A stretch of DNA of 64,000 bases from the IMG/VR virus record IMGVR_UViG_3300045988_137393; one strand, written 5' to 3'. A program made the translations under genes and the position numbers. The stretch is from a virus. The notes under the pieces were generated by a model. It was not told the DNA's origin and did no database searches. It saw only the letters and a list, made by a program, of their open reading frames with translations. Below, one piece after another: positions 23,907 to 63,707 of the stretch (positions are counted from its first letter, which is position 1; the number at the start of each line of letters is the position of its first letter).

Positions 23907-23994
23907 AGTCGCATTGAGCAGGCTCAGTCTACGCTTTTTTAAGCGGTTGTGAATTAAGCACATTTGAGAAGTGGTTCGATTCCACTTGCGACTT
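23907..23994 (+). ncRNA. tRNA-like element 1 (acceptor + canonical T arm, no 7-nt anticodon loop)
   Basis: Acceptor AGTCGCA/TGCGACT, T arm AGTGG-TTCGATT-CCACT, long extra arm TGTG..CACA; the anticodon-position hairpin CGCTT-TTTT-AAGCG has a 4-nt loop; D arm truncated. Confidence 0.5.
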
Positions 23995-45766: not shown

Positions 45767-46036
45767 ATGGAAAATTATAAAATTAGTTATAATGGTGATA
45801 CTCAAATAAAAAATATTCACCATATAGGTATTGATTATAATGGAAATTATTATAGTGTGATTTTCGGAGAATATGTAAATGGAGGATTCTTTAGTATTCC
45901 GAATTGGAATTGCGGTGGTGAGTTAGCTGGACTTAGCGATGTGTTTTGGAATACTGAATCTATTCAGAGATCATTAAAAAGTAAAAGAGCTTCTAAAGCT
46001 ATTGCAAAAGCGATAGCAGATTATGTAAAGGAGTGA
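45767..46036 (+). CDS. hypothetical protein
   Basis: GAAGGTGG RBS. Confidence 0.65.
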   Translation: MENYKISYNGDTQIKNIHHIGIDYNGNYYSVIFGEYVNGGFFSIPNWNCGGELAGLSDVFWNTESIQRSLKSKRASKAIAKAIADYVKE

Positions 46037-46041
46037 TTGGT

Positions 46042-47061: not shown

Positions 47062-47063
47062 TT

Positions 47064-47258
47064 ATGGTTGAATATATTGGAAAGAAAATCAGAACCGAAA
47101 AGAGAATAACGCTAAGAGGGTTAGCGAAAATGGCTGATATTGCACCAAGTACAATTAGCAAATGGGAAAATGGAAGTGCTGTTCCTGATTTAGCTGTACT
47201 TGATTTGGTTGCTAAGGCAATGGAAGTGAATCCGTTCGATCTTGTTAAATTTGTGTAA
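47064..47258 (+). CDS. XRE-family HTH protein
   Basis: ITLRGLAKMADIAPSTISKWENGSAVPDLAVLDLVAKAMEVNPFDL. Confidence 0.8.
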   Translation: MVEYIGKKIRTEKRITLRGLAKMADIAPSTISKWENGSAVPDLAVLDLVAKAMEVNPFDLVKFV

Positions 47259-47271
47259 TATGTATACGACA

Positions 47272-47475
47272 CTATTTCTTAGTGTCGCAGATAAAAATAT
47301 CATTTGGTGTGCAATTTAACGCCTGACATATTTTCTCTATGGTATCAAAACGAATGCTTTTTGTTTTTCCATTACAAATGTCACCAATATTATTACTAGA
47401 AATTCCAGTAGTTTTAGATAACCAATATTGAGTTTTTTCTTGATTGTCAAGAATTTGTTTAAGGTTTATTTTCAT
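47272..47475 (-). CDS. XRE-family HTH protein (leftward, divergent from mazF)
   Basis: TQYWLSKTTGISSNNIGDICNGKTKSIRFDTIEKICQALNCTPNDIF; AAGGAGGAAA RBS. Confidence 0.8.
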   Translation of the reverse strand: MKINLKQILDNQEKTQYWLSKTTGISSNNIGDICNGKTKSIRFDTIEKICQALNCTPNDIFICDTKK

Positions 47476-47546
47476 ATTTATTTTCCTCCTTATAAACTAC
47501 CTATTGGTATAATAGCAAAAAATATTATATTTTTCAATGATATATC

Positions 47547-47575
47547 TTGACATATGATATGTATAAGTATATAAT
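47547..47575 (+). promoter_or_regulatory. consensus sigma-A/sigma-70 promoter
   Basis: TTGACA (47547-52), exact 17-nt spacer, TATAAT (47570-75), ~70 nt upstream of mazF-like ATG. Confidence 0.8.
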
Positions 47576-47644
47576 GCAAAGCATAAGAAGTAGACAAAAG
47601 ATAAAAACGTAGGACATTACATAAGAAGAAAGGAGGTAAAAGGA

Positions 47645-48010
47645 ATGACTGTAAACTTTGGGGATGTTATGATGATTGACTTTGGAGAAGACAAAATTAA
47701 TTCGGTTCAAGTAGGAGTAAGACCAGGTGTGATCATTCAGAACGACATCGGGAACAAATATTCTCCAACCTCAATAGCTGTTCCTTTGACCAGTGAAATC
47801 AAGAAATTAAATATGCCATGTCATAAAGTCCTACATATGAATGAACAAAATGGCTTGACGGAAGATTCAATGGTGCTTGGAGAGCAAGTAAGGGTAATTG
47901 ACAAAAATTCGATATTATACAAAATGGGCACTTTAAACGATGGTGAATGTGATCTTGTCGTTAAAGCATATTTTGCAAATGTACCTAGAAGGAGGGTTAG
48001 TTGTGGCTGA
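47645..48010 (+). CDS. mazF: MazF/PemK-family endoribonuclease toxin
   Basis: GDVMMIDFGE...GVRPGVIIQND...IAVPLTSEIKK...GLTEDSMVLGEQVRVIDK matches PemK/MazF core. Confidence 0.8.
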   Translation: MTVNFGDVMMIDFGEDKINSVQVGVRPGVIIQNDIGNKYSPTSIAVPLTSEIKKLNMPCHKVLHMNEQNGLTEDSMVLGEQVRVIDKNSILYKMGTLNDGECDLVVKAYFANVPRRRVSCG

Positions 48011-48305
48011 ATATAAGACTATCACAAAGAAAGAATTGACAGAATTGTTAGATAAATATCCAGAAGATAAAGAGTTTAGTATTATCCAAACTCAACTTGG
48101 AATGACAATTATTCCATTAGGAGAGAGGATAGCAAATAAAGTAGATATTTTGGAAATTGCGAATGCAGCAAAAACAATGATTTATTCAGAGAATAAATTT
48201 ATGTCACAGGTTGATATGCACAGTGTAAGACAGGATATATTTAATATAGAAAGAAATGGAATAATGGATACGTTGTTGCTACCGAGATTTTCTAATAAGG
48301 AATAA
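48003..48305 (+). CDS. hypothetical protein overlapping mazF stop; candidate cognate antitoxin
   Basis: GTG 48003 7 nt after AGGAGGG, 8-nt overlap with mazF; no antitoxin fold recognisable. Confidence 0.5.
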   Translation: MAEYKTITKKELTELLDKYPEDKEFSIIQTQLGMTIIPLGERIANKVDILEIANAAKTMIYSENKFMSQVDMHSVRQDIFNIERNGIMDTLLLPRFSNKE

Positions 48306-48345
48306 CTTTAGTGTCCTGATTATAGGACACAATACATATTAAAAT

Positions 48346-48359
48346 GCAAACATGAACAA
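48346..48359. repeat. 14-nt direct repeat flanking IS (left)
   Basis: GCAAACATGAACAA, identical at 50098-50111. Confidence 0.85.
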
Positions 48360-50097
48360 CCTAAAATGAAAAATTAAACCTGTACTTTGACAACTGAAAA
48401 TGGCTATAAAAGGTCTAGTTTACTTTTTCTACAGCCCTTTCCAAGGCATGATATATTGGTTATATCGATTACTATCTGCTGGGAAAGGAGCAGATATGAA
48501 TTATTACAATGCTAGCGGACAAATGGATCTGTCAGATCGAATAGCAATAGAAACTGGGATATGCATCGGGGAGTCATTCAAAAAAATAGCAAAAAGACTT
48601 CGCAGACATCCATCTACTATTGCACATGAAGTTAAAGAAAACAGAACCTTCATTAAAGGTAATTACCCGAATGGAAAAGATTGCCGCATGGCAAGACAAT
48701 TCACAGTAAGGAATTTGTGCGGCTGTGATGAAGAAGCCTGTAATACAAAGTGTAGACTTTGCAGAGGAGTGGATTGTACCAAGGTATGCGATAGATATGT
48801 ATCAGTTGCTTGCCATAAGTTTGATTCGCCTCCGTATGTTTGTAATAACTGTAAGGATAAAAAGCTTTGCAACAAAGATAAGTATATTTACAGTGCGAAA
48901 TTCGCTGATGCAGCTGTAACTCGTCGTAGATCGGAGAGTCGACAAGGAGTTAGACTTTCTGATGAAAAGAAGGAAGAATTGGATGAACTTGTGACTCGAC
49001 TTGTTAAGAAAGGCCAGCCTTTAACACACATATATGCAGAACATGAAAATGAAATGCCAGTGTGTTTGAGAACACTTTATAACTATATCGATGAAGGTGC
49101 CTTATCTATTAAAAACATAGATTTAAGAAGAAAGACAGGCTACAAACCACGAAAGAAAAAGTACAACGATATCAATGGATTTCACTCAATGGAGTATAGA
49201 CAGTGTAGGACATATGAGGATTTTGAGTATGCGATGAAATTCAAATATTCAGAAGATGAAGTAACAGAAATGGATACTGTAAAAGGCGTTAGAGAATCTG
49301 GAAAGCGTTTGCTTACAATGATCTTTAGAAAGAACAACGTAATGCTACTATTCCTGATGCCAGATGGAAAAGCAGAATCCGTAAAAAGGGTTCTGGACTA
49401 TCTCGAGACAGGATTGGGAATAGATGTTTTTAGACGGTTGTTTCCGGTTATATTAACTGACAACGGCAGCGAATTCAAGAAGGTAGATGAGTTAGAACTT
49501 ACGCTGGATGAGGATGGCTTCCTAGTTTATAGAACAAGCCTTTATTACTGTGATCCAATGGCTTCATGGCAAAAAGGGTGTATCGAGAAGAATCATGAAT
49601 TTATTCGTTATGCCGTGCCAAAAGGAAAAAGCTTAAACCCATACACGCAAGAAGATATGACTTTATTAATGAATCATATCAATAGTGTAAAACGTCCTGG
49701 ACTTGGAAATAAAAGTCCATACGAGCTCGTAGAAGAGGATGATGAAGATTTCAAAGCATTAATGTCATTATTAAAAATGCACCTCATCCCGCCAGATGAA
49801 GTGCATTTAATGCCAGATTTATTCGTTAAAAAGTAATTAGACCGAAGCTGCAGATAGTAATCGATTTGTCAATAGGTATTAAATAGACGGGTCGCATTTA
49901 CTTTTGCATAACAAGTAGCCAGCCGTCTGTTAATCATGCAAACAAATATATACCTGCTATCTGGAATGCCTTAATTATAGCATGATATTTGAATTTGAAC
50001 ATCCATTATTAGGGCTTTATTTGACCTTTATTTGACCTCAGAACAGAATTTTGATTATTAGACGTATTTTCAGTTGGGTTTTAGTTTTTCATTCAAG
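48360..50097 (+). mobile_element. IS30-family insertion sequence (~1.74 kb)
   Basis: Imperfect terminal inverted repeats CCTAAAATGAAAAATTAAACC (48360-) vs revcomp of right end CTTGAATGAAAAACTAAAACC (-50097); single transposase ORF; flanked by 14-nt direct repeat. Confidence 0.75.
48496..49836 (+). CDS. IS30-family DDE transposase
   Basis: N-terminal HTH (ESFKKIAKRLRRHPSTIAHEV), DDE core with LTDNGSEF and YYCDPMASWQKGCIEKNHEFIRY (IS30-type SWQ+G..EN box); GGAAAGGAG RBS at ATG 48496. Confidence 0.8.
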   Translation: MNYYNASGQMDLSDRIAIETGICIGESFKKIAKRLRRHPSTIAHEVKENRTFIKGNYPNGKDCRMARQFTVRNLCGCDEEACNTKCRLCRGVDCTKVCDRYVSVACHKFDSPPYVCNNCKDKKLCNKDKYIYSAKFADAAVTRRRSESRQGVRLSDEKKEELDELVTRLVKKGQPLTHIYAEHENEMPVCLRTLYNYIDEGALSIKNIDLRRKTGYKPRKKKYNDINGFHSMEYRQCRTYEDFEYAMKFKYSEDEVTEMDTVKGVRESGKRLLTMIFRKNNVMLLFLMPDGKAESVKRVLDYLETGLGIDVFRRLFPVILTDNGSEFKKVDELELTLDEDGFLVYRTSLYYCDPMASWQKGCIEKNHEFIRYAVPKGKSLNPYTQEDMTLLMNHINSVKRPGLGNKSPYELVEEDDEDFKALMSLLKMHLIPPDEVHLMPDLFVKK

Positions 50098-51519: not shown

Positions 51520-53727
51520 GTGCATGAAGTGAAAGACGAAATATTGCGTGAAAAATTAAATAATCTTTCATCACAACAGTTGGAATGGATTAATGAATAC
51601 TGTGTAAATGATATGTCAAAATTGAAGAAAATTAGTTACAATGCATTTTTCAGGTATGGGATTCCAGCACATGAACATGACGAATTGTACGATGATGCAA
51701 TGAATGTTCTGATGGAAAGTGTTATCAACTTTGATTCATCTCAAGGTGCGAGTTTTAAAACTTACCTTATTAATAATATTAAAAAATCTGTTATTGACTG
51801 GTATAGAGACAACTATCAGAGATGTAAAAGAAAAAATCTATTAACTGATAAAAATGGAAAGATAGTAAAGGTTGATAAAAATGGAAATGTAACAGATGAC
51901 GATAAAGGAAAACCAGTTATTATTCCAGATACTTCATTTGATGCACCTACTGAAGAAGATAATGATTTAGTAGAAAAAATTGCATCTGACTTTAACGTAG
52001 AAGACAAGAGTGAGTTCGATTTTAGTGCCGATGAAAAAGTTGATAATTTTATTGATTCTTTGCCGAGGATACAAAAAAATATTTTGCTGATGCGGATGGA
52101 GAATGTTCCTGCTGATAATATAAAACAAAAATTGAATATATCAGACAGAGAATATAGTAGTGCTATGAAGTCAATTAAGATAAATAAAGGACTTTCAGTA
52201 TTTTCAAAGAATAAAAATGATGGGAATTATGATGTGGAGGTAAATAATATGGAAGACAGAATTATTGAAATTAGCGAATCTGAAAATTACAGGACGGACA
52301 AGTATAGCATGTATTCGTTGTTACAGGATAAGAAAAATGGAGACGTGAACTGCAACTACATCTTGCAACGTGAACCTTTTCAGTGGACTACAGAAGAAGC
52401 GAATAGATATTTTTGTCGTATTCTTAGTAATCTTCCTATTCCAGAAATTATTCTTTGTGAACAGAAGAAAAAGGGATTGACAATCTCTCATTTAATTGAC
52501 GGATTGCAGAGACTTTCATATGCTGAGGCATTCAAGGAAAATCGTATTAAGATTGGTTCAGCAGGAGCAGAGAGACATTTAATTCAGTATAGAGATTATG
52601 TCTTAGATGATAATGGAAATCGTGTACTTGATGAAGATGGCTTACCAGAATATGAGATGAAAATATTTGATGTTATAGGGAAATATTATAAAGATCTTCC
52701 TGATGAGTTAAAGAAACGATTCAATAATTTCAATATAAACGTAACAAAATTCTTTGATTGTACAGATGAGCAGATTGCAGATCATATTCGTGATTATAAC
52801 AATCATGCGAGTATGAATAAGGAACAGGGTGGTTTTCTTAATGTATCTGCACAGACAGCGGGATATATTAAAAATATTTCACAGAAAAACACATTCTTTA
52901 AAAATTGTGGGAAGTTTACAGATAATAATGTTATTAAGGGAAAGTTGGAACGTGTTGTTGCAGAATCAATAATGTTAATGTTCTTCCGTGATTCATGGAA
53001 AGCAAAACTTGATACAATTTACAAATATGTTGATGAAAATGCAACAGAACAGCAGTTCTTAAAACTTAATTCACATTTTAATAGATTGGAATTAGCATTA
53101 GGCGATGACAATAAAGACTTGAAGTCATTACTTACTCCAACTACAATGCCAATGTGGATTGCAGTATTTGATAAATTTACTACATATAATATTGAAGATT
53201 CAAGATTCATTGATTTCTTAAGAGCATATAATACAGAACTTAAAGATAAAGAAGTTGATGGTGTATCTATGGCAGATTTTAAAGACCAACAGACAAAGAA
53301 AAAGGCAACTATTACAGGTAAAATTGATTTACTTATAAAACTGATGAATGAATTTTTACATATTGGTACAAGAGAAGTAAATAACACAGAATTGGAGAAT
53401 AACAATACGAAAGAAAGTGCTGAAGAAAATACGGAAGAAAGTGTTCTTTCCTTTGTTCAAGAAAATGCAAATCCAAATGTGACAGACGAAGATATAAACC
53501 TTTACACAGACATGGTAGAAGATTGTGTTAAGATTGACGATCCAGTTTATAAAGAGTGTGGAATGGCATTAGTAGCACTCATGGCATATGCTTGTCAAAA
53601 TGATAAGGATCAGGATTTTGAAAAATGGATTGAGAATTACAGAAATAAATCTGATTTTAGTTCATCACAGAAAGTTAATTATACATATATGAAACGCAGC
53701 TTTGATAATTTTATAGCAAATGCGTAA
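51520..53727 (+). CDS. fusion protein: sigma-70-like regions 2 and 4 + DUF262 (ParB-like) domain + C-terminal extension
   Basis: N-term FDSSQGASFKTYLINNIKKSVIDWYRD (region 2-like) and LPRIQKNILLMRMENVPADNIKQKLNISDREYSSAMKSI (region 4 HTH-like); middle YILQREPFQWT...LIDGLQRLSYAE (DUF262 boxes); GTG start uncertain. Confidence 0.6.
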   Translation: MHEVKDEILREKLNNLSSQQLEWINEYCVNDMSKLKKISYNAFFRYGIPAHEHDELYDDAMNVLMESVINFDSSQGASFKTYLINNIKKSVIDWYRDNYQRCKRKNLLTDKNGKIVKVDKNGNVTDDDKGKPVIIPDTSFDAPTEEDNDLVEKIASDFNVEDKSEFDFSADEKVDNFIDSLPRIQKNILLMRMENVPADNIKQKLNISDREYSSAMKSIKINKGLSVFSKNKNDGNYDVEVNNMEDRIIEISESENYRTDKYSMYSLLQDKKNGDVNCNYILQREPFQWTTEEANRYFCRILSNLPIPEIILCEQKKKGLTISHLIDGLQRLSYAEAFKENRIKIGSAGAERHLIQYRDYVLDDNGNRVLDEDGLPEYEMKIFDVIGKYYKDLPDELKKRFNNFNINVTKFFDCTDEQIADHIRDYNNHASMNKEQGGFLNVSAQTAGYIKNISQKNTFFKNCGKFTDNNVIKGKLERVVAESIMLMFFRDSWKAKLDTIYKYVDENATEQQFLKLNSHFNRLELALGDDNKDLKSLLTPTTMPMWIAVFDKFTTYNIEDSRFIDFLRAYNTELKDKEVDGVSMADFKDQQTKKKATITGKIDLLIKLMNEFLHIGTREVNNTELENNNTKESAEENTEESVLSFVQENANPNVTDEDINLYTDMVEDCVKIDDPVYKECGMALVALMAYACQNDKDQDFEKWIENYRNKSDFSSSQKVNYTYMKRSFDNFIANA

Positions 53728-53993
53728 TCAATTTGGTAATAAGCAATAGCTTTTACATAAAAGATGGGCAACGATATGTCGTGAAGTTGCTGTTGCCCAT
53801 CTCGCATATCAACTAGGAATAATCCAGAAGTCGATATACATATATAGTATCTCATTTCTATGGCTGAATCAATATCCAAATGACATTCTTCTCGTTCTGA
53901 GTTGGATTATTCCATTATTAAAAATGGTAAATGAACAGAAATTAAAATAGAAATATCAAAATAAAGTTCGTTTCTTTAGAAGAGAGGTGAAAG

Positions 53994-54404
53994 ATGAAAA
54001 TTATGGGAACAATTCGTAGATTTGACGACTTAGGTAGAATAGTAATTCCAAAGGAAATTAGAAGACTGGTGTTTGGAAAAGCAGACGCAATTGGTGAGCC
54101 AATGGAAATATTTATTGACGGAGGAAATGTTGTACTCCGAAGATACGAGGAAATACAAACTTGTAAATGGATAAAATACGATTATAGAACGATTTGCCCG
54201 AAAGAACATGACGATGCTGATGATCCATATTGGAGGATACCTGAAAATATGGCAAATTTAAAATATTGTCCTTATTGTGGCAAAGAGATAGTTGTTGTAA
54301 ATAAAATCACAGTAAAACTTCGTTTCATTGTAAAAAATTTCTGGGCAATTCAGCTCAATAAAATTCCCAAATTAAAAAGAGAATATAGATATGTAACCAA
54401 TTAA
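53994..54404 (+). CDS. AbrB/SpoVT-family DNA-binding protein with C-terminal zinc ribbon
   Basis: GTIRRFDDLGRIVIPKEIRRLVF...MEIFIDGGNVVLRRYE = swapped-hairpin AbrB motif; C-term CKW...CPKE...CPYCGKE. Confidence 0.75.
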   Translation: MKIMGTIRRFDDLGRIVIPKEIRRLVFGKADAIGEPMEIFIDGGNVVLRRYEEIQTCKWIKYDYRTICPKEHDDADDPYWRIPENMANLKYCPYCGKEIVVVNKITVKLRFIVKNFWAIQLNKIPKLKREYRYVTN

Positions 54405-54444
54405 CATTCATATATAAAAATTATAGAAAAGGATAGTAAAACAG

Positions 54445-57045
54445 ATGAATGGATTGAGTAGTAAAGAAGTTCTCAAAAGTAGAGAGCTTCATGGAAGTAA
54501 TAAGCTTCCTGAACCAAAGTTGGACAAGTGGTATGACTTCGCAAAGGAGGCATTAAGTGAGAAAATCACAATGATTCTTATTGCAATTGCAGTATTACAG
54601 TTATTCCTTGGAGTCATGGGATTAATGGATTTATCAGATCCAATTATGATTCTTGTTGTATTAGCAATTGTAACATGTATTGCTGTTAAGACTGGACTTG
54701 GTGTTCAAAAATCAGCAGCAGAGTTGAGAGCCAAAACATCAGTCAGGTATTGTGACGTAATTCGTGATGGCAAAGTTCAAACAATTAATAAGGATGAATT
54801 GGTAGTTGGTGATATTGTTTGTGTAGGAATGGGACAAGAGATTTTTGCAGATGGATATCTCATTGAAGGTAAGATTTCTGTAAACAATGCAGCTATTAAT
54901 GGAGAAACAAAAGAGTGTAAGAAAACACCAATTGAAGGATACGTTCATAAGAAAACTACTTCAACAGATGCTTATACGAATAAGAATTGCTTATTTGCTG
55001 GCACAACAGTAATGTCAGGCGAAGGAAAAATGATTGTTACTGATGTAGGTGTGAATACAGTAAATGGTGATACACTTGTTAAAATGCAAACACTTGAAGC
55101 ACCAAAGACAGCACTTGATATTGCACTTGATAATCTGAGTGACTTCATTTCTAAGTGGGGAACAATCGCAGCCGTTATTACATTTGCGGTACTTACAATT
55201 TCAGGAATTGTGCAGGTTGGATTTGGAGAATATTTTAGCGGTGGCGTTCTGAATATTATTCAGAAAATTGCACAGAACTTCTCAGTAGCATTAACAATTA
55301 TTGTAGCTGCTGTTCCCGAAGGATTGCCTCTTATTGTAAAACTTGTAACAAAACAGAATGTAAAGACAATGGAGAAATTCAATATTCTTGCTAAGAATCC
55401 TGGTAAAATTCCAGAGTTAGCATATGTTGATATTATCTGTACTGATAAGACAGGTACTCTTACGACAGGTGTTATGACTCCAAAGAAGATTATTGATGGC
55501 TTTGGTAACGATGTAAATAAGGATTCAGTTCTTTGGAATAATATCAAGGCAAACATTTCTTTAAATAATAGTGCAACATTTGATTCAGAAAACAATATTA
55601 CAGGTGGTAATTCAATTGATAGAGCAGTTCTTAGCCTTGTAAATCCTGAAACATATGCTGACATTCAGAAAAAATATCCAGTTAAGTTAAAGCAGGTATT
55701 TAATAGTAGTAATAAGTATTCAGCTTTTACGACAAAGGATGGAATTACATACTATAAGGGTGCACCTGAGAAACTGATTGAGCATTGCACAAAAGTAATG
55801 GACTCAAGTGATAAAATTGTAGACAATAACGACAATGACACATTAAGTAATGCAATTACAGCAATGACAAGTAATGCAATGAGATGTATTGCAGTTACAA
55901 TGGCAGATGGTGATTTAGTAGAGAATGAAATACCGAATGATATGACATTCCTTGGAATTATTGGTGTTGTAGATCCTGTAAGAGATGAAGTACCGAGTGC
56001 AGTAAAAACAGCACATAAGGCTGGTATTCAAGTTATTGAAATTACAGGCGATTGTATTGAGACAGCAGTTGCAGTTGCTACAGAGTGTGGAATTTACAAA
56101 GATGGAGATTTAGCACTTACAAATGATGAATTTGAAGCGATGTCAGATGATGAAGTAAAGAGTATAATTCCTCGATTGAGAGTTATTTCAAGGTGTTCAC
56201 CAAACACAAAACTCAGACTTGTCACATTAGCACAGGAGATTGGAAAATCAGTTGCAATGACAGGTGATGGAGTAAATGATAGTCCTGCTTTAAAGAGAGC
56301 CGATGTTGGTTTTGGTATGCAAGGTGGTTCAGATGTTGCAAAAGAAGCATCAGATATTGTATTAACAGATGATAACTTTGCAAGCGTTGTAAAGGCAGTA
56401 GAACTTGGAAGAACATTTATGCACAATATTATGATGTTCCTTGAATTCCAGTTACCTATCAATATTTCACTTCTGATTCTCAGTGTTATCTATCCAATGA
56501 TTGTAACAGGTGCATTGCTCGCTTCAGTTCAGATTCTGATTGTAAATATCATTATGGATTCCCTTAATTCACTATCATTCGGTGGCGAACCACCAAAAGA
56601 TGAGTATATGACAGAGAAACCTATCAAGAAGGGTTCTGGCTTATTCATTAGAGGAGCAAAGAAACGTATTGCAATTAGTACAGTAGCATTTATTGTACTC
56701 TATGGAATTATTACATTTAGTCCAATTTCAGATATGTTTGCAACTGAAACAGAGGCTATAACAGCGAGATTTGCATTATTATGTTTCATGGCTGTATTTA
56801 ATGGATTTAACATTCGTACAGAGCATATTAATTTATTCAATGGTATTGGAAAGAACAAGTTATTTTCAGCCATTGCAATCGGAATTTTTGTAATGACGAT
56901 TGCTCTTTGTAGCTTTGCGGAAAATCTTATTAAGGTCACAGCTTTAGATTTCAAACATTGGGTAGTAGTTGTAATTTTAGCCTTTATGGTTATTCCAATT
57001 GATCTTATCAGAAAGATTATTGAGAAGAAAAGAGAGAATAAGTAA
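54445..57045 (+). CDS. P-type Ca2+-transporting ATPase (P2-type, YloB/LMCA1-like)
   Basis: 866 aa; GLSSKEVLKSRELHGSNKL N-terminus, TGE-region, VPEGLPLIV, ICTDKTGTLT phosphorylation site, ITGDCIETAVAVA, MTGDGVNDSPALKRADVGFGM; ~10 TM segments. Confidence 0.85.
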   Translation: MNGLSSKEVLKSRELHGSNKLPEPKLDKWYDFAKEALSEKITMILIAIAVLQLFLGVMGLMDLSDPIMILVVLAIVTCIAVKTGLGVQKSAAELRAKTSVRYCDVIRDGKVQTINKDELVVGDIVCVGMGQEIFADGYLIEGKISVNNAAINGETKECKKTPIEGYVHKKTTSTDAYTNKNCLFAGTTVMSGEGKMIVTDVGVNTVNGDTLVKMQTLEAPKTALDIALDNLSDFISKWGTIAAVITFAVLTISGIVQVGFGEYFSGGVLNIIQKIAQNFSVALTIIVAAVPEGLPLIVKLVTKQNVKTMEKFNILAKNPGKIPELAYVDIICTDKTGTLTTGVMTPKKIIDGFGNDVNKDSVLWNNIKANISLNNSATFDSENNITGGNSIDRAVLSLVNPETYADIQKKYPVKLKQVFNSSNKYSAFTTKDGITYYKGAPEKLIEHCTKVMDSSDKIVDNNDNDTLSNAITAMTSNAMRCIAVTMADGDLVENEIPNDMTFLGIIGVVDPVRDEVPSAVKTAHKAGIQVIEITGDCIETAVAVATECGIYKDGDLALTNDEFEAMSDDEVKSIIPRLRVISRCSPNTKLRLVTLAQEIGKSVAMTGDGVNDSPALKRADVGFGMQGGSDVAKEASDIVLTDDNFASVVKAVELGRTFMHNIMMFLEFQLPINISLLILSVIYPMIVTGALLASVQILIVNIIMDSLNSLSFGGEPPKDEYMTEKPIKKGSGLFIRGAKKRIAISTVAFIVLYGIITFSPISDMFATETEAITARFALLCFMAVFNGFNIRTEHINLFNGIGKNKLFSAIAIGIFVMTIALCSFAENLIKVTALDFKHWVVVVILAFMVIPIDLIRKIIEKKRENK

Positions 57046-57061
57046 TTGAGGAGATGAGAGC

Positions 57062-57265
57062 ATGGTAAGGAGAGATAAAAGTTATAAAAAAGTAGAGATT
57101 ATTACTATTATATGCTTTTCAATTAGTGTTATTACAGTATGTATTACACGCTTTATTCCATTTATTTTTCTGACGTTACTCACATTCCCAATTTCTTTTA
57201 AATTATTAAAAGGGAAGGTTGACAGCCTTCCCAAGAATAAGGAGGACAAACAATATGTCAATTAG
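57062..57265 (+). CDS. small membrane protein
   Basis: 67 aa with two hydrophobic helices; GAGGAG RBS. Confidence 0.55.
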   Translation: MVRRDKSYKKVEIITIICFSISVITVCITRFIPFIFLTLLTFPISFKLLKGKVDSLPKNKEDKQYVN

Positions 57266-57833
57266 TTTAGTTAAAGGTCAGAAGATTGACCTTACAAAAG
57301 GTAATGCAGGTTTAAACAAAGTCGTATTTGGTCTTGGATGGGATACAAATAGATACGATGGTAATGCAGATTTCGATTTGGATGTATCAGCATTTTTTAC
57401 TGATGATTCAGGAAAGGTAACAGGCGAACAGGATTTTGTATTTTATGGTCAGCCACAGCATCCAAGCGGAGCATTGATTTATTCTGGCGATAATAGAACA
57501 GGTGTAGGTGATGGCGATGACGAGACAATGATTGTTGAGTTAAATAAGATTCCATCTAATATTACAAAGATTAGCTTCTCAGCGACAATTTATGATGCAG
57601 AAAATCGTTTACAGAATTTCGGAATGGTTGATAATTCGTACATTAGAGCATACAACGCTGATACAAATGAGGAACTTTTCAAATATGAACTTAATGAGGA
57701 TTTCTCATTAGAGACAGGTGTTATTGCAGGTGAGTTGTATCGTAAGAACGGTGAATGGAAGTTTAATGCAGTTGGTTCAGGTTACAATGGTGGTTTAGCT
57801 GCTATTGGTAGAAATTTTGGTCTTGATTTATAA
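57255..57833 (+). CDS. terD: TerD-family protein 1
   Basis: MSISLVKGQKIDLTK...GLGWD...DFDLDVSAF...SGDNRTGVGDGDDETM (Ca2+-site motif); AAGGAGGA RBS. Confidence 0.9.
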   Translation: MSISLVKGQKIDLTKGNAGLNKVVFGLGWDTNRYDGNADFDLDVSAFFTDDSGKVTGEQDFVFYGQPQHPSGALIYSGDNRTGVGDGDDETMIVELNKIPSNITKISFSATIYDAENRLQNFGMVDNSYIRAYNADTNEELFKYELNEDFSLETGVIAGELYRKNGEWKFNAVGSGYNGGLAAIGRNFGLDL

Positions 57834-57851
57834 AATGGAAGGAGAATATAT

Positions 57852-58427
57852 ATGTCAGTAAATTTAGTAAAAGGACAGAAAATTAATTTATCTAAGGAAG
57901 TAGCAGGTGGTCTTACAAAGATTATGGTAGGACTTGGATGGGATGCTGCTAAGAAAGGATTATTTGGTTCTAAGCCAAACATTGATTGCGATGCTTCAGC
58001 AATTATTTTAGGAAAAGATGATAAGTATCGCACATGTGTTTATTATGGTGACAGATCAGCGGAAGACAGATGTGTGTATCATCATGGCGACAACCTCACA
58101 GGAGATGGAGACGGTGATGATGAGCAGATTACAGTTGATCTTGCGAATATTACAAATAAGGTTGAGAAGATTGTATTTGTAGTAAATATCTATGATTGTA
58201 TTTCAAGAAAGCAGGATTTTGGACTTATCAAGAATGCGTACATTAGACTTGTTGATGAGTCAACTGGTAAGGAAATTTGTAAATACAATCTTTCAGATGA
58301 TTATGCTGGCAAGACAGCAATGATATTTGCAGAGGTTTATAAGAAAGACGGAGAGTGGAAATTTAACGCTATCGGTCAGGGAACAAATGATTCAAGTGTT
58401 AGCGAATTAACAAGAAGATACAAATAG
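57852..58427 (+). CDS. terD: TerD-family protein 2
   Basis: MSVNLVKGQKINLSK...GLGWD...HGDNLTGDGDGDDEQI. Confidence 0.9.
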   Translation: MSVNLVKGQKINLSKEVAGGLTKIMVGLGWDAAKKGLFGSKPNIDCDASAIILGKDDKYRTCVYYGDRSAEDRCVYHHGDNLTGDGDGDDEQITVDLANITNKVEKIVFVVNIYDCISRKQDFGLIKNAYIRLVDESTGKEICKYNLSDDYAGKTAMIFAEVYKKDGEWKFNAIGQGTNDSSVSELTRRYK

Positions 58428-58439
58428 GAGGATTTAATT

Positions 58440-59021
58440 ATGTCAGTTTCGTTAAGTAAAGGACAGAGAGTAGATTTAACAAAGGGTAGACCGTCATTAA
58501 AAAACATTCTTGTTGGACTTGGATGGGATATTAATCATTATGATGGAGAAGCAGATTTTGACCTCGATGCATCCGTGTTTATGACAAAAGAGAATGGTAA
58601 GGTTGGCAAGGATGAGGATTTCATTTTCTATGGTAATCTTGAACATAGTTCAAAGAGTGTAAAGCATATGGGAGATAACCGTACAGGTGAGGGAGATGGA
58701 GATGATGAGGTTATTAAGATTAAACTTGATAAAATCCCATCAGACTACGAGACTCTTGCTGTGACGGTCACAATTTATGATGCTGAGAGTAGACTTCAGA
58801 ACTTCGGTATGGTTGGAAATGCATATGTGCGTGTAGTAGACGAAGAGACAGGCGAGGAACTTATTCGTTTTGATTTAAGTGAAGACTTCTCTACCGAGAC
58901 TGCGTTAGTCGTAGCTGAAATTTATAAACATAATGGTGAATGGAAGTTTAAGGCTGTAGGAAGTGGCTATAACGGTGGATTAAAAGCATTATGTAATCAG
59001 TATAGAATTGATGCAGAGTAG
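58440..59021 (+). CDS. terD: TerD-family protein 3
   Basis: MSVSLSKGQRVDLTK...GLGWD...MGDNRTGEGDGDDEVI. Confidence 0.9.
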   Translation: MSVSLSKGQRVDLTKGRPSLKNILVGLGWDINHYDGEADFDLDASVFMTKENGKVGKDEDFIFYGNLEHSSKSVKHMGDNRTGEGDGDDEVIKIKLDKIPSDYETLAVTVTIYDAESRLQNFGMVGNAYVRVVDEETGEELIRFDLSEDFSTETALVVAEIYKHNGEWKFKAVGSGYNGGLKALCNQYRIDAE

Positions 59022-59030
59022 GAGGATTGT

Positions 59031-59780
59031 ATGACAAATTTTATGTTTATTATAATTGTGGCGATTGTATTAATTGCACTGATCCTTTTCTTTACTCCTT
59101 TTGGTAAACAGCTTCGAGTAAAATTTAAAGGAAGAACGGATGAAGTGATGCGTCAGGATGCACAGACACCAGAAGGTGCTAGAGATTATTACAATGCAGC
59201 CATTAGAGAAAAGGAAGACTTTTATAACAAGGCATCTGCTACATATGCTGAAATTTCAGGAAAGCGTGATACAGCAGAAAAAGACTTATATCAGGCGAAT
59301 AAAGATATTATGCGTGTTACACAGCAGATTAATGCTTGTCTTGATGAAAATAAAGAAAATGAAGCAATGCAGTATGCAATGAAGAAGTCTACTTTGGAGA
59401 ATAAGATTAATGTACTAAAAGATACAATTGAAGAGATGAAAGAAGCACAGGTTCACCAAAAAGACATTCGTGATCAGGTAGCCGAAGAATTGCAGAAACT
59501 TAAAGAGGAAAAGGAACAGGTTCTTTTTCAGATGGAAGCTGATAGTCAGATTATCGAACTTCATCAGAGTATGGATAGTCTTAATACGAATAATGAGAGC
59601 GATAGAATGCTTGAAAGAGTTCGTGAAGGAGCAAGAAAGACAAGAGAACGTGCAGAAGGAAGTAGAATTGCATATGATTCTAGCGCACAGGCTAATGAGA
59701 GAAGACTTGCTAATTCTGAAAGAGAGCGCAATGCTCGTCAGATCCTTGATGATATGAAGAGACAGAGGGGTAATAAGTAA
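59031..59780 (+). CDS. membrane-anchored coiled-coil protein, PspA/IM30-like
   Basis: N-terminal TM FMFIIIVAIVLIALILFF followed by ~200 aa heptad-rich, charged sequence with PspA-like layout; assignment by pattern only. Confidence 0.4.
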   Translation: MTNFMFIIIVAIVLIALILFFTPFGKQLRVKFKGRTDEVMRQDAQTPEGARDYYNAAIREKEDFYNKASATYAEISGKRDTAEKDLYQANKDIMRVTQQINACLDENKENEAMQYAMKKSTLENKINVLKDTIEEMKEAQVHQKDIRDQVAEELQKLKEEKEQVLFQMEADSQIIELHQSMDSLNTNNESDRMLERVREGARKTRERAEGSRIAYDSSAQANERRLANSERERNARQILDDMKRQRGNK

Positions 59781-59872
59781 TGATTGTATTAAACATTGGA
59801 GTTTTCGTAATCTGTCTTGGAGTATGCTTTGGAGCAGGTTTTATTGTAGGAAAACGTAAAAAGAATAAATAA
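59780..59872 (+). CDS. small hydrophobic peptide (30 aa)
   Basis: ATG overlaps previous stop (TAATG); MIVLNIGVFVICLGVCFGAGFIVGKRKKNK. Confidence 0.4.
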   Translation: MIVLNIGVFVICLGVCFGAGFIVGKRKKNK

Positions 59873-59877
59873 TTCAA

Positions 59878-59907
59878 GAGTTAGTAGGTGTCATAGCCTA
59901 CTGACTC
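59878..59907 (+). terminator. 11-bp stem-loop, possible terminator
   Basis: GAGTTAGTAGG/CCTACTGACTC; not followed by a T run. Confidence 0.35.
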
Positions 59908-60019: not shown

Positions 60020-60268
60020 TTGAAAGTTGTTGGAAACAAAGAAGATGTTAATCGAATAGAATTGTCACATAAAGGTTTGAATGTCAGTTTTAATTGTTCT
60101 ATGAAGCCATTGCCTTATGATTATAATATTGATATATCTAAACCTAAAACAATTGAGATAATATTCAAAGATTCTTACGAAATAGAAGCTTTGATAGATG
60201 TATTAGAAAAATTTAAAAAAGAGTGTTTTGGGCTTATTGGAGAATGGAGACAATATTATGACGAATAA
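60020..60268 (+). CDS. hypothetical protein
   Basis: TTG start 8 nt after GGAGGTG. Confidence 0.6.
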   Translation: MKVVGNKEDVNRIELSHKGLNVSFNCSMKPLPYDYNIDISKPKTIEIIFKDSYEIEALIDVLEKFKKECFGLIGEWRQYYDE

Positions 60269-60800
60269 AGAGCAAAATAATTTAAGCAAATACATAGCAT
60301 TAATTCTTAGACATAGACCTGATGTTGTTGGCATCACATTAGACGAACATGGCTGGGCTAATGTATCAGATTTATTAAAGGGAATCAATAAAACTCAGAC
60401 AATTACAATGAAAATGCTTGAAAAAATTGTAGAAGAAGATTCTAAACAGAGATATTCATTTAATCGAGAGAAGACGCTTATCAGAGCAAATCAAGGTCAT
60501 TCTGTAAAAGTCGATGTAGAATTGAAAGAGTGTATGCCACCAGATATTTTATATCATGGAACAGGTGTTAAATATTGCTCTTCAATCAATAAACAAGGGT
60601 TAATATCCAAGAGTCGTTTATATGTCCATCTATCAAAAGATATTGAAACAGCAACAAATGTTGGCAGTAGACATGGAGAACCGTTTATTTATAAGGTTAG
60701 AGCAAAAGATATGTATAATGACGGATATAAATTCTTTTTATCTCAAAATGATGTATGGCTTACAAAAGAAGTACCAATCTGTTATTTAGAAGGAGAATAA
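60258..60800 (+). CDS. kptA: RNA 2'-phosphotransferase Tpt1/KptA
   Basis: LSKYIALILRHRPDVVGITLDEHGWANVSDLL...KQRYSF...IRANQGHS...LYHGT...GLISKSRLYVHLS...NDVWLTKEVP follows the Tpt1 R-H-R-R catalytic pattern. Confidence 0.85.
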   Translation: MTNKEQNNLSKYIALILRHRPDVVGITLDEHGWANVSDLLKGINKTQTITMKMLEKIVEEDSKQRYSFNREKTLIRANQGHSVKVDVELKECMPPDILYHGTGVKYCSSINKQGLISKSRLYVHLSKDIETATNVGSRHGEPFIYKVRAKDMYNDGYKFFLSQNDVWLTKEVPICYLEGE

Positions 60801-60804
60801 TACA

Positions 60805-61353
60805 ATGTCAAATTTATATGTATATTTAATTCGTTCTCGTAACAAGGATAATAAGGATATTCCAAATTTTAAGCAACGAGATAAGACAATTCTTGAATAT
60901 AAAGAGAATGAAGACGAAATAATTGAAGAATTTAAAAGTTTTGCAACTAAAGGAGTTCCTGGTGAACAGACAAGATTATATAGATCAGTTAATTCTAGGA
61001 ACGAAGAGAAAATCAGGGAAGAATTTATTATTCGTCTGCTGAGAGACAAGCCAAGTATGACACAGCTTAATCGTACATTAGCTTCAGTTGCACAGCAAGT
61101 ACAAAATCGTGACGAGAGTAAATGGTTGTTTGACTTTGATGTGGACAATGAAGAAAAAGTAGAAGATTTTATTGACGATATTTATTTTTATTCAGAATTG
61201 GATAATCACGAATTGCATAAGACTCCACATGGCTATGCAATCATTGTTCCGCATAGATTTGATACAAGAGAGTTGATGGAAAAGTGGAAAGATTATGATA
61301 TCACATTGAAGAAAGATGAGTTGTTGTTTTTGGATATGATAACGAATAAGTGA
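60805..61353 (+). CDS. hypothetical protein between kptA and cca
   Basis: 182-aa ORF, AGGAGAA RBS; no motif recognised. Confidence 0.7.
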   Translation: MSNLYVYLIRSRNKDNKDIPNFKQRDKTILEYKENEDEIIEEFKSFATKGVPGEQTRLYRSVNSRNEEKIREEFIIRLLRDKPSMTQLNRTLASVAQQVQNRDESKWLFDFDVDNEEKVEDFIDDIYFYSELDNHELHKTPHGYAIIVPHRFDTRELMEKWKDYDITLKKDELLFLDMITNK

Positions 61354-61390
61354 TATTTTATTGATATACCAAAAATTGAGGTGAATTTGG

Positions 61391-62800
61391 ATGAAAAGAT
61401 TGAAAATTGAAATTCCATCTGGTGCAAATGAAATTATCCATAGTCTACAAAACAATGGATATGAAGCTTTCTTAGTTGGAGGGTGCGTAAGAGATAGTAT
61501 TCTTGGCAGAATAATTCACGATTATGACATTACAACTTCTGCCACACCAGATGAAATGATGGAAGTATTTAAGGATAAAAGAATTATTGAAACTGGATTA
61601 CAACATGGAACTATTACCATTATAATTGACGGTGAAGGATATGAATGTACCACTTACAGAATTGACGGTAATTACTCAGATAGTCGTAGACCTGATAGCA
61701 TAACATTTACACGAAATCTTAAAGAAGATTTAAAGCGTAGAGATTTTACAATCAATGCGATGGCATACAATGATGAAGTTGGACTTGTAGATCCGTTTAA
61801 TGGCATGGAAGATATTGAGCATTATAAAATCAGATGTGTTGGTAGAGCAGAGGATAGATTTTCAGAAGATGCTTTAAGGATTTTACGTGCTATTCGGTTT
61901 GCTTCACAACTGGGATTTGTCCTTGAACCTGATACAGATTGGAATATCTCTAAAATGTATAAGAATTTGGAGAATATATCTATTGAAAGGATCAATAGTG
62001 AGTTCTGTAAAATTGCTGCATCGAGTGATTTCTGTGTACAAATGGTCTTATATCACGAAGTATTCTCATTGTTCATTCCTGAAATTAAAGATATGTTTGG
62101 CTTTCAACAGAATAATCCATATCACATGTATGATGTATGGAATCATACCGTACATGCAGTACAAGCATATTCTTGTGATTGTGAAGAAGACTTAAATCCA
62201 ATAGATTTAATTACGTCATTAGCGGTGTTCTTTCATGACATAGGAAAGCCACACTGTTATCAAGACGGTGAGGATGGCATTAGACATTTTAAAGGGCATG
62301 GAAAAGTCAGTGCTGATATGACTGATACAATTATGAAAAGACTTCGTTTTGATAATGATACAAGAGAAAAAGTAGTGCAGCTTGTTTATTATCATGATGC
62401 AACTTTTGAAGTGGGTGAAAAGTATATCAAGAGATGGCTCAATAAGATTGGAGAAGAACAATTTAGAAGATTACTGAATGTTCGTAGAGCTGATATTAAA
62501 GCGCAGGCTTATACAGAGCAAGAGAGTAGGCTTCAGAAAATTGACAATATCGAATATATCTTAGAGGAAGTTTTACAGAAAGACGAATGTTTCTCACTGA
62601 AAGATTTGGCTGTTAATGGCAATGATTTGATTGAGATTGGATATAAGCCAGGAAAAGAAATAGGGAATACACTGAATTGTCTTTTACAGTTAGTAATTGA
62701 AGGTGTATATCTAAACGAGAAAAGTGAGTTACTTAAATATGTTGAGACAACAAAAGAATGGATGAAGTTAGGAGAGAATTATAATGGTAAGATTATTTAG
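61391..62800 (+). CDS. cca: CCA-adding tRNA nucleotidyltransferase with HD domain
   Basis: LVGGCVRDSILGRIIHDYDITT (class II NTase G[SG]..RD..L...D.D), RDFTINAMA, ALRILRAIRFASQLGF, HD motif FFHDIGKP. Confidence 0.85.
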   Translation: MKRLKIEIPSGANEIIHSLQNNGYEAFLVGGCVRDSILGRIIHDYDITTSATPDEMMEVFKDKRIIETGLQHGTITIIIDGEGYECTTYRIDGNYSDSRRPDSITFTRNLKEDLKRRDFTINAMAYNDEVGLVDPFNGMEDIEHYKIRCVGRAEDRFSEDALRILRAIRFASQLGFVLEPDTDWNISKMYKNLENISIERINSEFCKIAASSDFCVQMVLYHEVFSLFIPEIKDMFGFQQNNPYHMYDVWNHTVHAVQAYSCDCEEDLNPIDLITSLAVFFHDIGKPHCYQDGEDGIRHFKGHGKVSADMTDTIMKRLRFDNDTREKVVQLVYYHDATFEVGEKYIKRWLNKIGEEQFRRLLNVRRADIKAQAYTEQESRLQKIDNIEYILEEVLQKDECFSLKDLAVNGNDLIEIGYKPGKEIGNTLNCLLQLVIEGVYLNEKSELLKYVETTKEWMKLGENYNGKII

Positions 62801-63707
62801 CCACAGTGATTTAGACGGAATCGGTTGTGCAGTTTTGGCAAAACTTGCATTTGGTAAAGATGTAGATATTTCATACTGTGATTACGACAATATTGATTCA
62901 ACTGTAAAGGAATATTTGGAAACAGAACAGGACGACACAATCCCAATTTATATTACCGATATTCGTGTCAATGAAGAAACTGCTGAGTTGCTAAATAAAA
63001 GAGGCAATGTTCAGTTATTAGATCATCATCCAACAGCTCTTGGATTAAATAAGTATGATTGGTGTGATGTAGTTATCGAAGATTCCAAAGGAATTAAAAC
63101 ATCGGGAACTATGTTGTTTTATCATTGGTTAGGTATGAATGGTAGCCTGAGTGAAGAGTTAGAGAATAATAATGCGTTAGAGAGATTTGCTGAATTAGTG
63201 AGAGATTATGACACTTGGAGATGGTCAGAACTTGGTGAAGATGGAGTTATTTGTAAGCAGGTGAACGATTTACTTTATCTGTATGGTCGAGATGATTTTA
63301 TTCATTGGTGTATTTCGGAGATACGTGGTGAAATATTCCCATTGTTATCTGCTAAAGATGAGGTTGTTCTGAAGATTAAGCAGGATGAAATTGATAGATA
63401 TATCAAGGAGAAGAATGAAACCATGTTTACCAGTCCTATGTGTGGTAAGGTTTGTGGTTTTGTATTTGCAGATAGGTTTGTTAGTGAATTAGGTAATAGA
63501 CTTTGTAAAATGCATCCTGAAATTGATTTTGTGGCAATGATTGATATTGATGGTTGTACGGTATCTTATAGAACCGTTAAAGAAGATATTGATCTTGGTA
63601 AAGATGTAGCAAGTTTATTTGGTGGCGGTGGTCATCCAAAAGCTGCTGGTTCAGAATTTGGTCAGAGTATTAAGTTGAAAATTATTGGGGAAATCTTTGG
63701 ACAGTGA
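62784..63707 (+). CDS. DHH/DHHA1 phosphoesterase (NrnA-like)
   Basis: FSHSDLDGIGCAVL (motif I), YITDI, LLDHHPT (DHH), C-terminal FGGGGHPKAAG (DHHA1 GGGH). Confidence 0.8.
   Translation: MVRLFSHSDLDGIGCAVLAKLAFGKDVDISYCDYDNIDSTVKEYLETEQDDTIPIYITDIRVNEETAELLNKRGNVQLLDHHPTALGLNKYDWCDVVIEDSKGIKTSGTMLFYHWLGMNGSLSEELENNNALERFAELVRDYDTWRWSELGEDGVICKQVNDLLYLYGRDDFIHWCISEIRGEIFPLLSAKDEVVLKIKQDEIDRYIKEKNETMFTSPMCGKVCGFVFADRFVSELGNRLCKMHPEIDFVAMIDIDGCTVSYRTVKEDIDLGKDVASLFGGGGHPKAAGSEFGQSIKLKIIGEIFGQ

Follow-up and report, generated by a model that had tools for sequence, protein, structure and literature searches.

A cation pump, TerD paralogues and a PspA-like protein linked in one gene block of gut phages

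Why would a phage carry, side by side, a pump of the Ca2+-ATPase class, several TerD proteins and a relative of the membrane-stabilising protein PspA? The question is raised by the IMG/VR virus record IMGVR_UViG_3300045988_137393, of which we analysed a stretch of 64,000 nucleotides (the window). In an earlier note on this DNA, eight open reading frames (ORFs) at positions 53994-59872, all on the plus strand, had been read as a phage-borne Ca2+ module composed of an AbrB regulator, a P2-type ATPase, three tandem TerD paralogues, a membrane-anchored PspA-like protein and two micro-membrane proteins, and the boundaries given there for these ORFs hold. This work shows that the conserved core of the block runs from the ATPase gene to a terminal peptide of 30 amino acids (aa), at 54445-59872. 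With moderate confidence, we propose that this core is a trimmed, phage-adapted Ter-type system that would handle Ca2+ and protect the cytoplasmic membrane of the cell that the phage occupies.

A linked block that recurs across phages

The linkage of these genes is strict. In IMG/VR, 163 viral stretches carry a relative of the ATPase with at least 70% identity, on contigs of up to ~206 kb, many of which measure 160-186 kb. When loci were collected by means of the ATPase, one or more TerD genes and a PspA-like gene were found directly after the pump in 73 of the 74 viral loci with enough downstream sequence; 50 of these loci carry three TerD genes (type A) and 23 carry a gene for a protein resembling von Willebrand factor A (vWA)-TerF together with a single TerD gene (type B). 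The vWA domain of type B was identified by Pfam in locus L022, and the type-B vWA protein also matches Pfam Copine. When loci were collected by means of the PspA-like gene, an ATPase and TerD were present in 69 of the 70 with enough upstream sequence. A third layout, in which the ATPase is ~50% identical to that of the window, comprises a small membrane protein, a vWA protein, three TerDs and the PspA-like gene. In total, the gene block recurs in ~150 independent viral contigs.

Pump and TerD are also associated in a second clade of ATPases that share 30-37% identity with the pump of the window; this clade was reached via the fecal contig MT840059 (L001, MT840059.1). The loci of this clade (L196-L208) lie on huge-phage contigs of 85-355 kb with a G+C fraction of 0.28-0.55. 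In all 13, the pump has two to four TerD genes directly beside it; the array ends in TelA in nine of the loci and in a PspA_IM30-like protein in one (L204). The gene order is reversed compared with that of the window, with TelA/PspA first, then the TerDs and then the ATPase. Because the association of pump and TerD survives both this rearrangement and deep divergence, we regard it as the best computational argument that the genes are functionally linked. In L206, genes for HAD and C-C bond lyase, which belong to the classic Ter metabolite set, are found as well. A search for relatives of the L204 PspA-like protein returned its self-match alone.

The eight ORFs of the window are as follows (TM, transmembrane).

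53994..54404, plus strand: AbrB/SpoVT-like N-terminal domain with a Cys-rich (zinc-ribbon-like) tail, 136 aa; variable neighbour, matches sub-threshold
54445..57045, plus strand: P2-type (PMCA/LMCA1-like) cation pump, 866 aa; predicted to export Ca2+, with one ion site
57062..57265, plus strand: 67-aa ORF, predicted two-helix membrane hairpin; coding status uncertain
57255..57833, plus strand: TerD paralogue 1 (TerD1), 192 aa; Pfam TerD E 4.1e-75, full length
57852..58427, plus strand: TerD paralogue 2 (TerD2), 191 aa, the most divergent of the three; Pfam TerD E 5e-68
58440..59021, plus strand: TerD paralogue 3 (TerD3), 193 aa, the closest to classical TerD; Pfam TerD E 1.3e-83
59031..59780, plus strand: membrane-anchored PspA/IM30/Vipp1-like protein, 249 aa; TM helix 2-21, linker helix 23-43, long helical hairpin
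59780..59872, plus strand: 30-aa single-pass membrane microprotein MIVLNIGVFVICLGVCFGAGFIVGKRKKNK; start overlaps the stop of the PspA-like gene

Tight spacing and a shared strand had been taken as signs of a single operon. The AbrB-like and ATPase genes are separated by 40 nt, the ATPase gene and the 67-aa ORF by 16 nt, TerD1 and TerD2 by 18 nt, TerD2 and TerD3 by 12 nt, and TerD3 and the PspA-like gene by 9 nt, while the 67-aa ORF overlaps TerD1 by 11 nt and the stop of the PspA-like gene shares the sequence ATGA with the start of the 30-aa ORF. Each of the eight starts is preceded by a Shine-Dalgarno-like motif, and TerD1 starts at the ATG at 57255, with AAGGAGG upstream, rather than at the TTG at 57219. 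In a promoter and terminator scan, promoter-like sites were fewer than in shuffled sequence and no internal terminator was convincing, a result that is compatible with one transcript and is otherwise uninformative. With its short gaps or overlaps and its recurrence in so many contigs, the block looks like one functional unit, as the earlier note had supposed. Two hairpins bracket the AbrB-like gene and the module, one at 59880-59905 with a 9-bp stem directly 3' of the 30-aa ORF, the other at 53764-53802 with a 10-bp stem (GATGGGCAAC...GTTGCCCATC) 3' of the upstream gene; both are devoid of a T-tract and neither was called by the terminator scan.

The five large genes are under purifying selection, with ratios of non-synonymous to synonymous substitution rates (dN/dS) of 0.01-0.14: 0.04-0.14 for the ATPase, 0.01-0.07 for TerD1, 0.04-0.12 for TerD2 and 0.04-0.10 for the PspA-like gene. 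The DNA around the block is far less constant. The genes that flank it in L008, L009 and L011 have no detectable homology with the window, and flanking genes differ even between strains whose pumps are 99% identical. Recombination breakpoints were found between the ATPase gene and TerD1 in two loci, L061 and L090. Compared with the window, the synonymous divergence (dS) of L061 is 1.26 in the ATPase gene and 0.04-0.12 in the TerDs and the PspA-like gene, and in L090 the ATPase is 76% identical and the TerDs are 97-99% identical.

The proteins of the block

The ATPase matches five P-type ATPase Pfam domains. It scores 512.6 bits with TIGR01517, the NCBIfam equivalog model for PMCA-type Ca2+-ATPases (cutoff 507.05), and lies far under the cutoffs of all other P-type subfamily models, those of the PMR1 and SERCA types included. 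All P2 signatures listed in the earlier note were read from the sequence: PEGLP (E292), DKTGT (D334, within CTDKTGTLT), TGD (534-536, within ITGD 533-536) and GDGVNDSPALK (607-617, with GDGVND at 607-612). The closest solved structures are those of the plant pump ACA8, SPCA1, the Listeria pump LMCA1 and PMCA1/2. The ion-site residues E292 (M4, in PEGLP), N673 (M5), and N701 and D705 (M6) align with those of ACA8 and SPCA1, and E292, D334, N673, N701, D705, TGD and GDGVND are invariant in 49 of 49 representative homologues. At the level of the sequence, the Ca2+ reading of the pump therefore holds, as does that of the TerD loops described below, and Ca2+ is the predicted transported ion.

TerD binds Ca2+, and the earlier note had ascribed a Ca2+ loop to each of the three paralogues. 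All three give full-length matches to Pfam TerD (PF02342), with 251.8 bits for TerD1, 228.7 for TerD2 and 279.5 for TerD3 against a cutoff of 25.3, and all three keep the DxDxS and GDN(R/L)TGxGDGDDE loops. In TerD1 the loops read DFDLDVS and GDNRTGVGDGDDE, and in TerD2 IDCDAS and GDNLTGDGDGDDE; TerD3 matches the Klebsiella pneumoniae TerD structure (2KXT) with E 7.7e-73, both Ca2+-binding loops being identical. Positional orthologues are 80-100% identical across phages, compared with 43-55% identity between paralogues.

The 249-aa protein is, by profile and predicted fold, probably a remote homologue of PspA/Vipp1, in agreement with the TM-anchored PspA/IM30-like layout proposed earlier. The AlphaFold model (confidence score pLDDT 82.5) consists of a TM helix, a linker helix and a hairpin formed by residues 47-105 and 109-247. 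The best Foldseek matches of this model in the PDB are Vipp1/PspA structures (6zvr, 8qbs, 4whe; E 0.02-0.06), and it superposes on residues 1-144 of Escherichia coli PspA with a root-mean-square deviation of 2.3 A over 115 alignment columns. A family profile built from 53 diverse members (A4) matches Vipp1/PspA with E 1.3e-7, the next non-PspA match being at 2e-4 and generic coiled coils lying far behind, and the alignment is in register, query residues 52-209 facing Vipp1 28-186 (helices alpha1-alpha4). The amphipathic helix alpha0 of PspA/Vipp1 is not found in the 249-aa protein, which has the hydrophobic TM helix 2-21 and the linker helix instead. The family is small, with 233 clusters (50% identity) in a set of 1.84 billion proteins, and one of its distant members (L195:3082-3912) scores 42.4 bits with Pfam PspA_IM30, above the cutoff. 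TelA was considered as the identity of the 249-aa protein and rejected, as there is no Pfam TelA match.

A more distant PspA-like branch is found in L194 (Bacillus phage G gp243-gp250) and L195 (MT835556.1), in another conserved gene set: an ABC permease, an ABC ATPase, a ~200-aa unknown protein and the PspA-like gene, followed by OmpA/MotB-domain proteins. No TerD lies near the PspA-like genes of Bacillus phage G (gp247) and MT835556, which are adjoined by ABC transporter genes. A PspA/IM30 fold match in Acinetobacter phage ME3 was also considered as a candidate neighbour of a Ter cluster; gp168, which is of equal length, is a different protein.

Of the two micro-membrane proteins of the earlier note, the 30-aa peptide stands. 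Its motif, MIVLNIGVF..C......G...GK/R-rich tail, occurs at the same position in all three layouts and persists even beside a PspA-like protein of only 33% identity. Its dN/dS is 0.10-0.33, and the shared ATGA indicates that it is translationally coupled to the PspA-like gene.

The evidence for the other micro-membrane protein, the 67-aa ORF, is mixed. It has a good ribosome-binding site (GAGGAG), and a related ORF of 62-84 aa follows the ATPase in a distant lineage (L176-L193), where it adjoins the vWA gene and has the core RD.(E/S)Y..VE.I.L.C...C.T(R/K)F.PFI. It is absent from most lineages with three TerDs, the length of its C-terminus is variable (53-69 aa), and the only comparison that could be used, with L061, gives 1 synonymous versus 13 non-synonymous changes. 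These properties suggest that it is weakly constrained and leave its coding status uncertain. In L193 the homologue of this ORF is read through into the vWA-TerF-like gene to give a 311-aa fusion, the two being separate ORFs in L178 and L187.

The AbrB-like gene does not belong to the module. The matches of its product are all sub-threshold: the N-terminal 55 residues match the SpoVT model TIGR02851 with E 5e-12, and the scores with Pfam MazE_antitoxin (18.9 bits, cutoff 24.7) and TIGR01439 (22.8, cutoff 28.3) are too low. Such a gene lies upstream of the ATPase in only three of 80 related viral loci (L037, L044 and L057), and in L113-L115, where the ATPase is 99% identical, it is absent and other small genes take its place. 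This rare occurrence, together with replacement in near-identical strains, rules it out as the regulator of the module that the earlier note had made of it.

The phage, its accessory region and the cellular relatives of the pump

That the block is phage-borne is borne out by the 163 viral stretches, by one source that is named 'Caudoviricetes sp.' and by the content of the window, which includes terminase-like and tail-fibre-like genes, tRNAs and RNA-repair genes. The terminase-like gene is distantly related to Bacillus phage terminases, SPbeta-like ones included, and the window further encodes a Ku-like protein, HNH proteins, two tyrosine integrases and a ParB-like protein. An Rfam scan gave eight tRNAs as the only RNA elements of the window, and hence neither a riboswitch nor any other element that would reveal the ion. 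An additional 88-nt tRNA with an undetermined two-base anticodon, called by ARAGORN at 23907-23994, is not confirmed by the Rfam tRNA model. At ~20000-21500 gene orientation and GC skew change sign, with minus-strand genes before ~20 kb and plus-strand genes after it, and the cumulative GC skew reaches its minimum there; this could be a point of divergent transcription or a replication origin.

No near-identical DNA was found among deposited phages. The exact ATPase sequence is present on human-gut contigs of up to 104 kb, more than 100 variants are 98-99% identical, with sources named Agathobacter rectalis or 'Caudoviricetes sp.', and one PspA-like cluster alone has 800 member sequences. Copies of the module also lie inside larger contigs (L009, 378 kb; L022, 499 kb; L113, 818 kb), of which L022 is an isolate scaffold with an integrase gene in the locus. 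Lysogeny is likely.

RNA-repair genes follow the block in the window at 60228-63707 (Tpt1, a phrog_8839 protein, a CCA-adding enzyme and a DHH phosphoesterase), and RNA-repair neighbours recur in otherwise non-homologous backbones (L009, L029, L031 and L197), in the form of Thg1, RNA ligase, PNK-HD, RtcB and a PNK-phosphatase-Rnl1 fusion. With methylases and a Tad2-like gene beside them, these neighbours may mark a counter-defence region, a fit that is circumstantial.

Upstream of the module, the region 46033-49836 carries a tyrosine integrase and a transposase-like gene, and genes for a helix-turn-helix regulator and a PemK toxin were called in the same region of the near-identical L003/L004. 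The ORF at 51520-53727 encodes a 735-aa protein with a sigma-70 region-2-like N-terminus and a GmrSD_N (type IV restriction-like) domain, which matches PADLOC NsnA; in L114 and L115 the two parts are separate genes. The gene content of this upstream region is highly variable (L003, L113-L115) among strains whose modules are 98-100% identical.

Outside phages the pump is found alone. The ATPase homologues of Ruminococcus/Oscillospiraceae in GTDB are ~70% identical, solitary and devoid of TerD within 10 kb, and in the two that were checked (L014 and L018) the gene lies among housekeeping genes, for example those for a release factor, LeuA and isopropylmalate dehydrogenase. No metal riboswitch was found upstream of these chromosomal homologues. 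Where genome loci do carry the module, their flanks are of phage type (methylases, Thg1, RNA ligase, polynucleotide kinase, NAD-ligase, HNH, integrase), so that the linked form is restricted to phage contexts: no cellular locus among those found has it outside a phage-like context. A neighbour-joining tree that has no support values places the cellular ATPases (L012-L023) in a single clade inside the phage pumps, with types A and B intermixed. Transfer may have gone from phage to cell just as well as from cell to phage, and we draw no direction from this unsupported tree.

What the block may do, and its place among known systems

Our reading of the core as a phage-adapted Ter-type system would work in the following way. 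A breach of the membrane, caused by the DNA injection of an incoming phage, by pore-forming bacteriocins or by abortive-infection effectors of the host, would admit Ca2+ from the Ca2+-rich gut lumen. The three non-redundant TerDs would bind the incoming Ca2+, serving in the cytosol as its buffer or sensor, a part that in sister phages would be played by the vWA-TerF-like protein and one TerD. The TM-anchored PspA/Vipp1-type protein and its 30-aa partner would stabilise or seal the damaged bilayer, and the PMCA/LMCA1-type pump would export Ca2+ and reset the system, the pump taking the place that TerC has in bacterial TerD operons and the PspA-like protein that of TelA. As a result, the phage-occupied cell would stay energised. 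LMCA1-type pumps export Ca2+, PspA/Vipp1 seals leaky membranes and stabilises damaged ones, ter operons on plasmids make cells resistant to phages, pore-forming colicins and tellurite, and Ca2+ influx triggers ESCRT-III repair in eukaryotes. We infer the coupling of TerD to PspA and the benefit to the phage. The roles suggested in the earlier note, blunting abortive infection or excluding superinfecting phages, are plausible.

A bolder version of this proposal, which we put forward only tentatively and consider rather unlikely, is that TerD, loaded (by itself or together with a vWA-TerF-like protein) with Ca2+ from a membrane lesion, is a Ca2+ sensor that recruits or activates a polymer of the ESCRT-III superfamily, the PspA-like protein or TelA, in prokaryotic and viral membrane repair, the pump then clearing the Ca2+. 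If this were true, the pathway would correspond in function to the ALG-2/ESCRT-III repair of eukaryotes, the resistances long known as Ter phenotypes (against phages, pore-forming colicins and tellurite) would amount to tolerance of membrane lesions, and large phages would carry the module to survive pore-forming abortive-infection effectors or competing phages.

Several observations weigh against a Ca2+-driven membrane-protection system. The ion specificity of the ATPase is not readable from its sequence, SPCA-type relatives also carry Mn2+, and the cutoff of the PMCA model is cleared by 5 bits only, a narrow margin. The motif of the A domain is NGET (residues 152-155; window 54898-54909) and not TGES, with Gly and Glu retained; since NGE(T/S) is found throughout the family, including the chromosomal Ruminococcus homologues and distant relatives in Bacilli and Muribaculaceae, this is a family trait and not decay. 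The acidic loop is partly lost in the type-B TerD, which has GKHYDE in place of GDGDDE. The 249-aa protein scores 27.1 bits with Pfam PspA_IM30 (PF04012), under the cutoff of 33.9, and its homology is remote, with Foldseek E-values that are weak, a common outcome for coiled coils. PADLOC-DB 2.0 has no match for the ATPase, the TerDs or the type-B vWA protein, and the sole match of the module is that of the PspA-like protein to PbeC, a coiled-coil match of 19.9 bits at noise level. Finally, linkage is not universal, since the Jug (jumbo gut) phages transcribe the pump and the terD operons as separate units (PMC12880540).

The same genes could serve plain Ca2+ homeostasis, the pump and a TerD buffer lowering or tuning cytosolic Ca2+ for replication and packaging and the PspA-like protein and the microprotein only aiding the insertion, stability or regulation of the pump, with no membrane damage involved. 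The 30-aa peptide resembles in size and topology sarcolipin, MgtS and KdpF, which are known small regulators of P-type ATPases. Homeostasis is also the published hypothesis for phage Ca2+-ATPases, and a small protein is co-transcribed with the pump in Jug phages (PMC12880540). However, this explanation accounts neither for the presence of a PspA/Vipp1- or TelA-type protein beside TerD in two unrelated ATPase clades nor for the substitution of a vWA-TerF-like protein for two TerDs, and the microprotein is coupled to the PspA-like gene and not to the pump; we find homeostasis doubtful.

Another possibility, to which we also give a low probability, is a Ter-type exclusion or defence function for the good of the lysogen or infected cell, in which TerD, the vWA protein and the PspA-like protein would form a sub-membrane barrier or signalling system against superinfecting phage or plasmid DNA or xenobiotics, and the ATPase would be a non-orthologous replacement of TerC, perhaps for Mn2+. 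Such a role was proposed for the Ter genes of jumbo phages (Iyer et al., 2021; PMC7824862). The temperate features of the phage agree with it (the two tyrosine integrases, the ParB-like gene, PemK in related upstream flanks, YopX domains in related strains, the distantly SPbeta-like terminase and the related modules in contigs of 378-818 kb, one of them the isolate scaffold), as does the position of the module in a hypervariable accessory region with GmrSD_N-type and methylase genes. It is weakened by the lack of any PADLOC model match and by the absence, within 10 kb on each side of the ATPase, of TerB, TerC and the metabolite-synthesis genes of a full Ter system, and the neighbours are mostly of counter-defence type (tRNA repair, methylases, Tad2-like), which suits the phage's own infection. 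Its mechanism overlaps that of the membrane-protection system, from which it differs mainly in the beneficiary. That the block is a host-derived passenger cassette with no phage function is disfavoured and seems to us highly improbable: the ~70% identity of the nearest cellular ATPases (Ruminococcus/Oscillospiraceae) does imply that the pump was once exchanged with hosts, but the block stays intact down to 50% ATPase identity in ~150 viral contigs under strong purifying selection, and no cellular locus that we found has the linked form outside a phage-like context.

The membrane-protection system that we favour would give a setting to TerD proteins, whose mechanism has been missing for about three decades despite the frequency of ter operons in pathogens, plasmids and large phages. 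The linkage connects TerD with the flux of divalent cations and with proteins that remodel membranes, and the cassette is compact: its five to six genes are directly expressible and testable. Human gut metagenomes are rich in this phage family, which appears to infect major butyrate producers (one source is Agathobacter rectalis), and therefore the module may affect the fitness of important commensals.

The arrangement had been presented as something not seen described. This is right for the linkage of pump, TerD and PspA-like genes in one operon, of which our full-text literature searches found no description, but phage Ter systems (PMC7824862), phage Ca2+-ATPases and a terD-pspA-like operon (PMC12880540) were already published. 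What is new here is the physical linkage in one operon and the minimal cassette, the parts being known from phages. The closest precedent is that of the Jug phages of Bacteroides/Phocaeicola, in which a Ca2+-translocating P-type ATPase was reported as new for phages (preprint 2025; Sci Adv 2026, PMC12880540). These phages carry three terD genes, one of them beside a pspA-like gene, and all of these genes are transcribed in vivo, the terD-pspA-like operon and the ATPase highly so; the pump was also found in 81 other huge gut phages and four smaller ones (159-197 kb), some with Bacillota-like ATPases (PMC12880540), among which the present phage group may be included. Both cases share a gut phage, a P-type ATPase of the Ca2+ type, three terD genes and a pspA-like neighbour. 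They differ in that the Jug phages have separate operons and a pump paired with a small upstream protein, whereas here there is one operon, which includes the genes of a TM-anchored PspA-like protein and of the conserved 30-aa peptide and lies on contigs of up to ~206 kb assigned to Clostridia.

Cultured large phages commonly carry TerD genes, and phage Ter systems, with TelA and vWA-TerF as sub-membrane components in jumbo phages, were described by Iyer et al. (2021, Viruses; PMC7824862). With these systems and with bacterial and plasmid ter operons (terZABCDEF) the block shares tandem TerDs, optional proteins of the vWA-TerF-like and TelA types, a membrane transporter and carriage by large phages. 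It differs from a canonical ter operon in having a P-type ATPase at the place of TerC and a PspA-like protein at that of TelA; TerC, TerB, TelA and PRTase/HAD or nucleoside-metabolite genes are all missing from the module and from 10 kb on each side of the ATPase (the model-by-model scan covered only this part of the window). The yceCDEFGH operon of Bacillus subtilis, which we take to encode three TerDs, TerC, YceG and the TelA-like YceH, belongs to the same comparison.

Among bacterial pumps, Listeria LMCA1 is similar in length (~880 aa versus 866 aa), in the lack of a calmodulin-binding tail and in the M4 Glu and M6 Asn/Asp, and is among the best PDB matches (E 1.6e-90); Streptococcus pneumoniae CaxP and B. 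subtilis YloB are further bacterial Ca2+-ATPases with a single site. The phage pump differs from the bacterial Ca2+-ATPases in its ~30% identity, in NGET instead of TGES, in being phage-encoded and in its operon with TerD and PspA-like genes. With PspA, IM30, Vipp1 and LiaH and their small partners (PspB/C, LiaI), the 249-aa protein and the 30-aa peptide share a helical hairpin, an in-register profile match and a tiny membrane partner, but here a TM helix stands for alpha0 the family is small and divergent, and the protein of the window is below the Pfam cutoff. A functional Ca2+-transporting P-type ATPase is known from a Chlorella virus (Bonza et al., 2010, as cited in PMC12880540). It is likewise virus-encoded, but that virus is a eukaryotic giant virus and the pump has no TerD or PspA partners. 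The last comparison is an analogy only. In eukaryotic membrane repair ALG-2 recruits ESCRT-III, and copines are Ca2+-dependent membrane binders with vWA domains. The phage block and this repair pathway would have in common a soluble Ca2+-binding protein, a polymer of the ESCRT-III superfamily and the extrusion of Ca2+, although TerD and ALG-2 are non-homologous.

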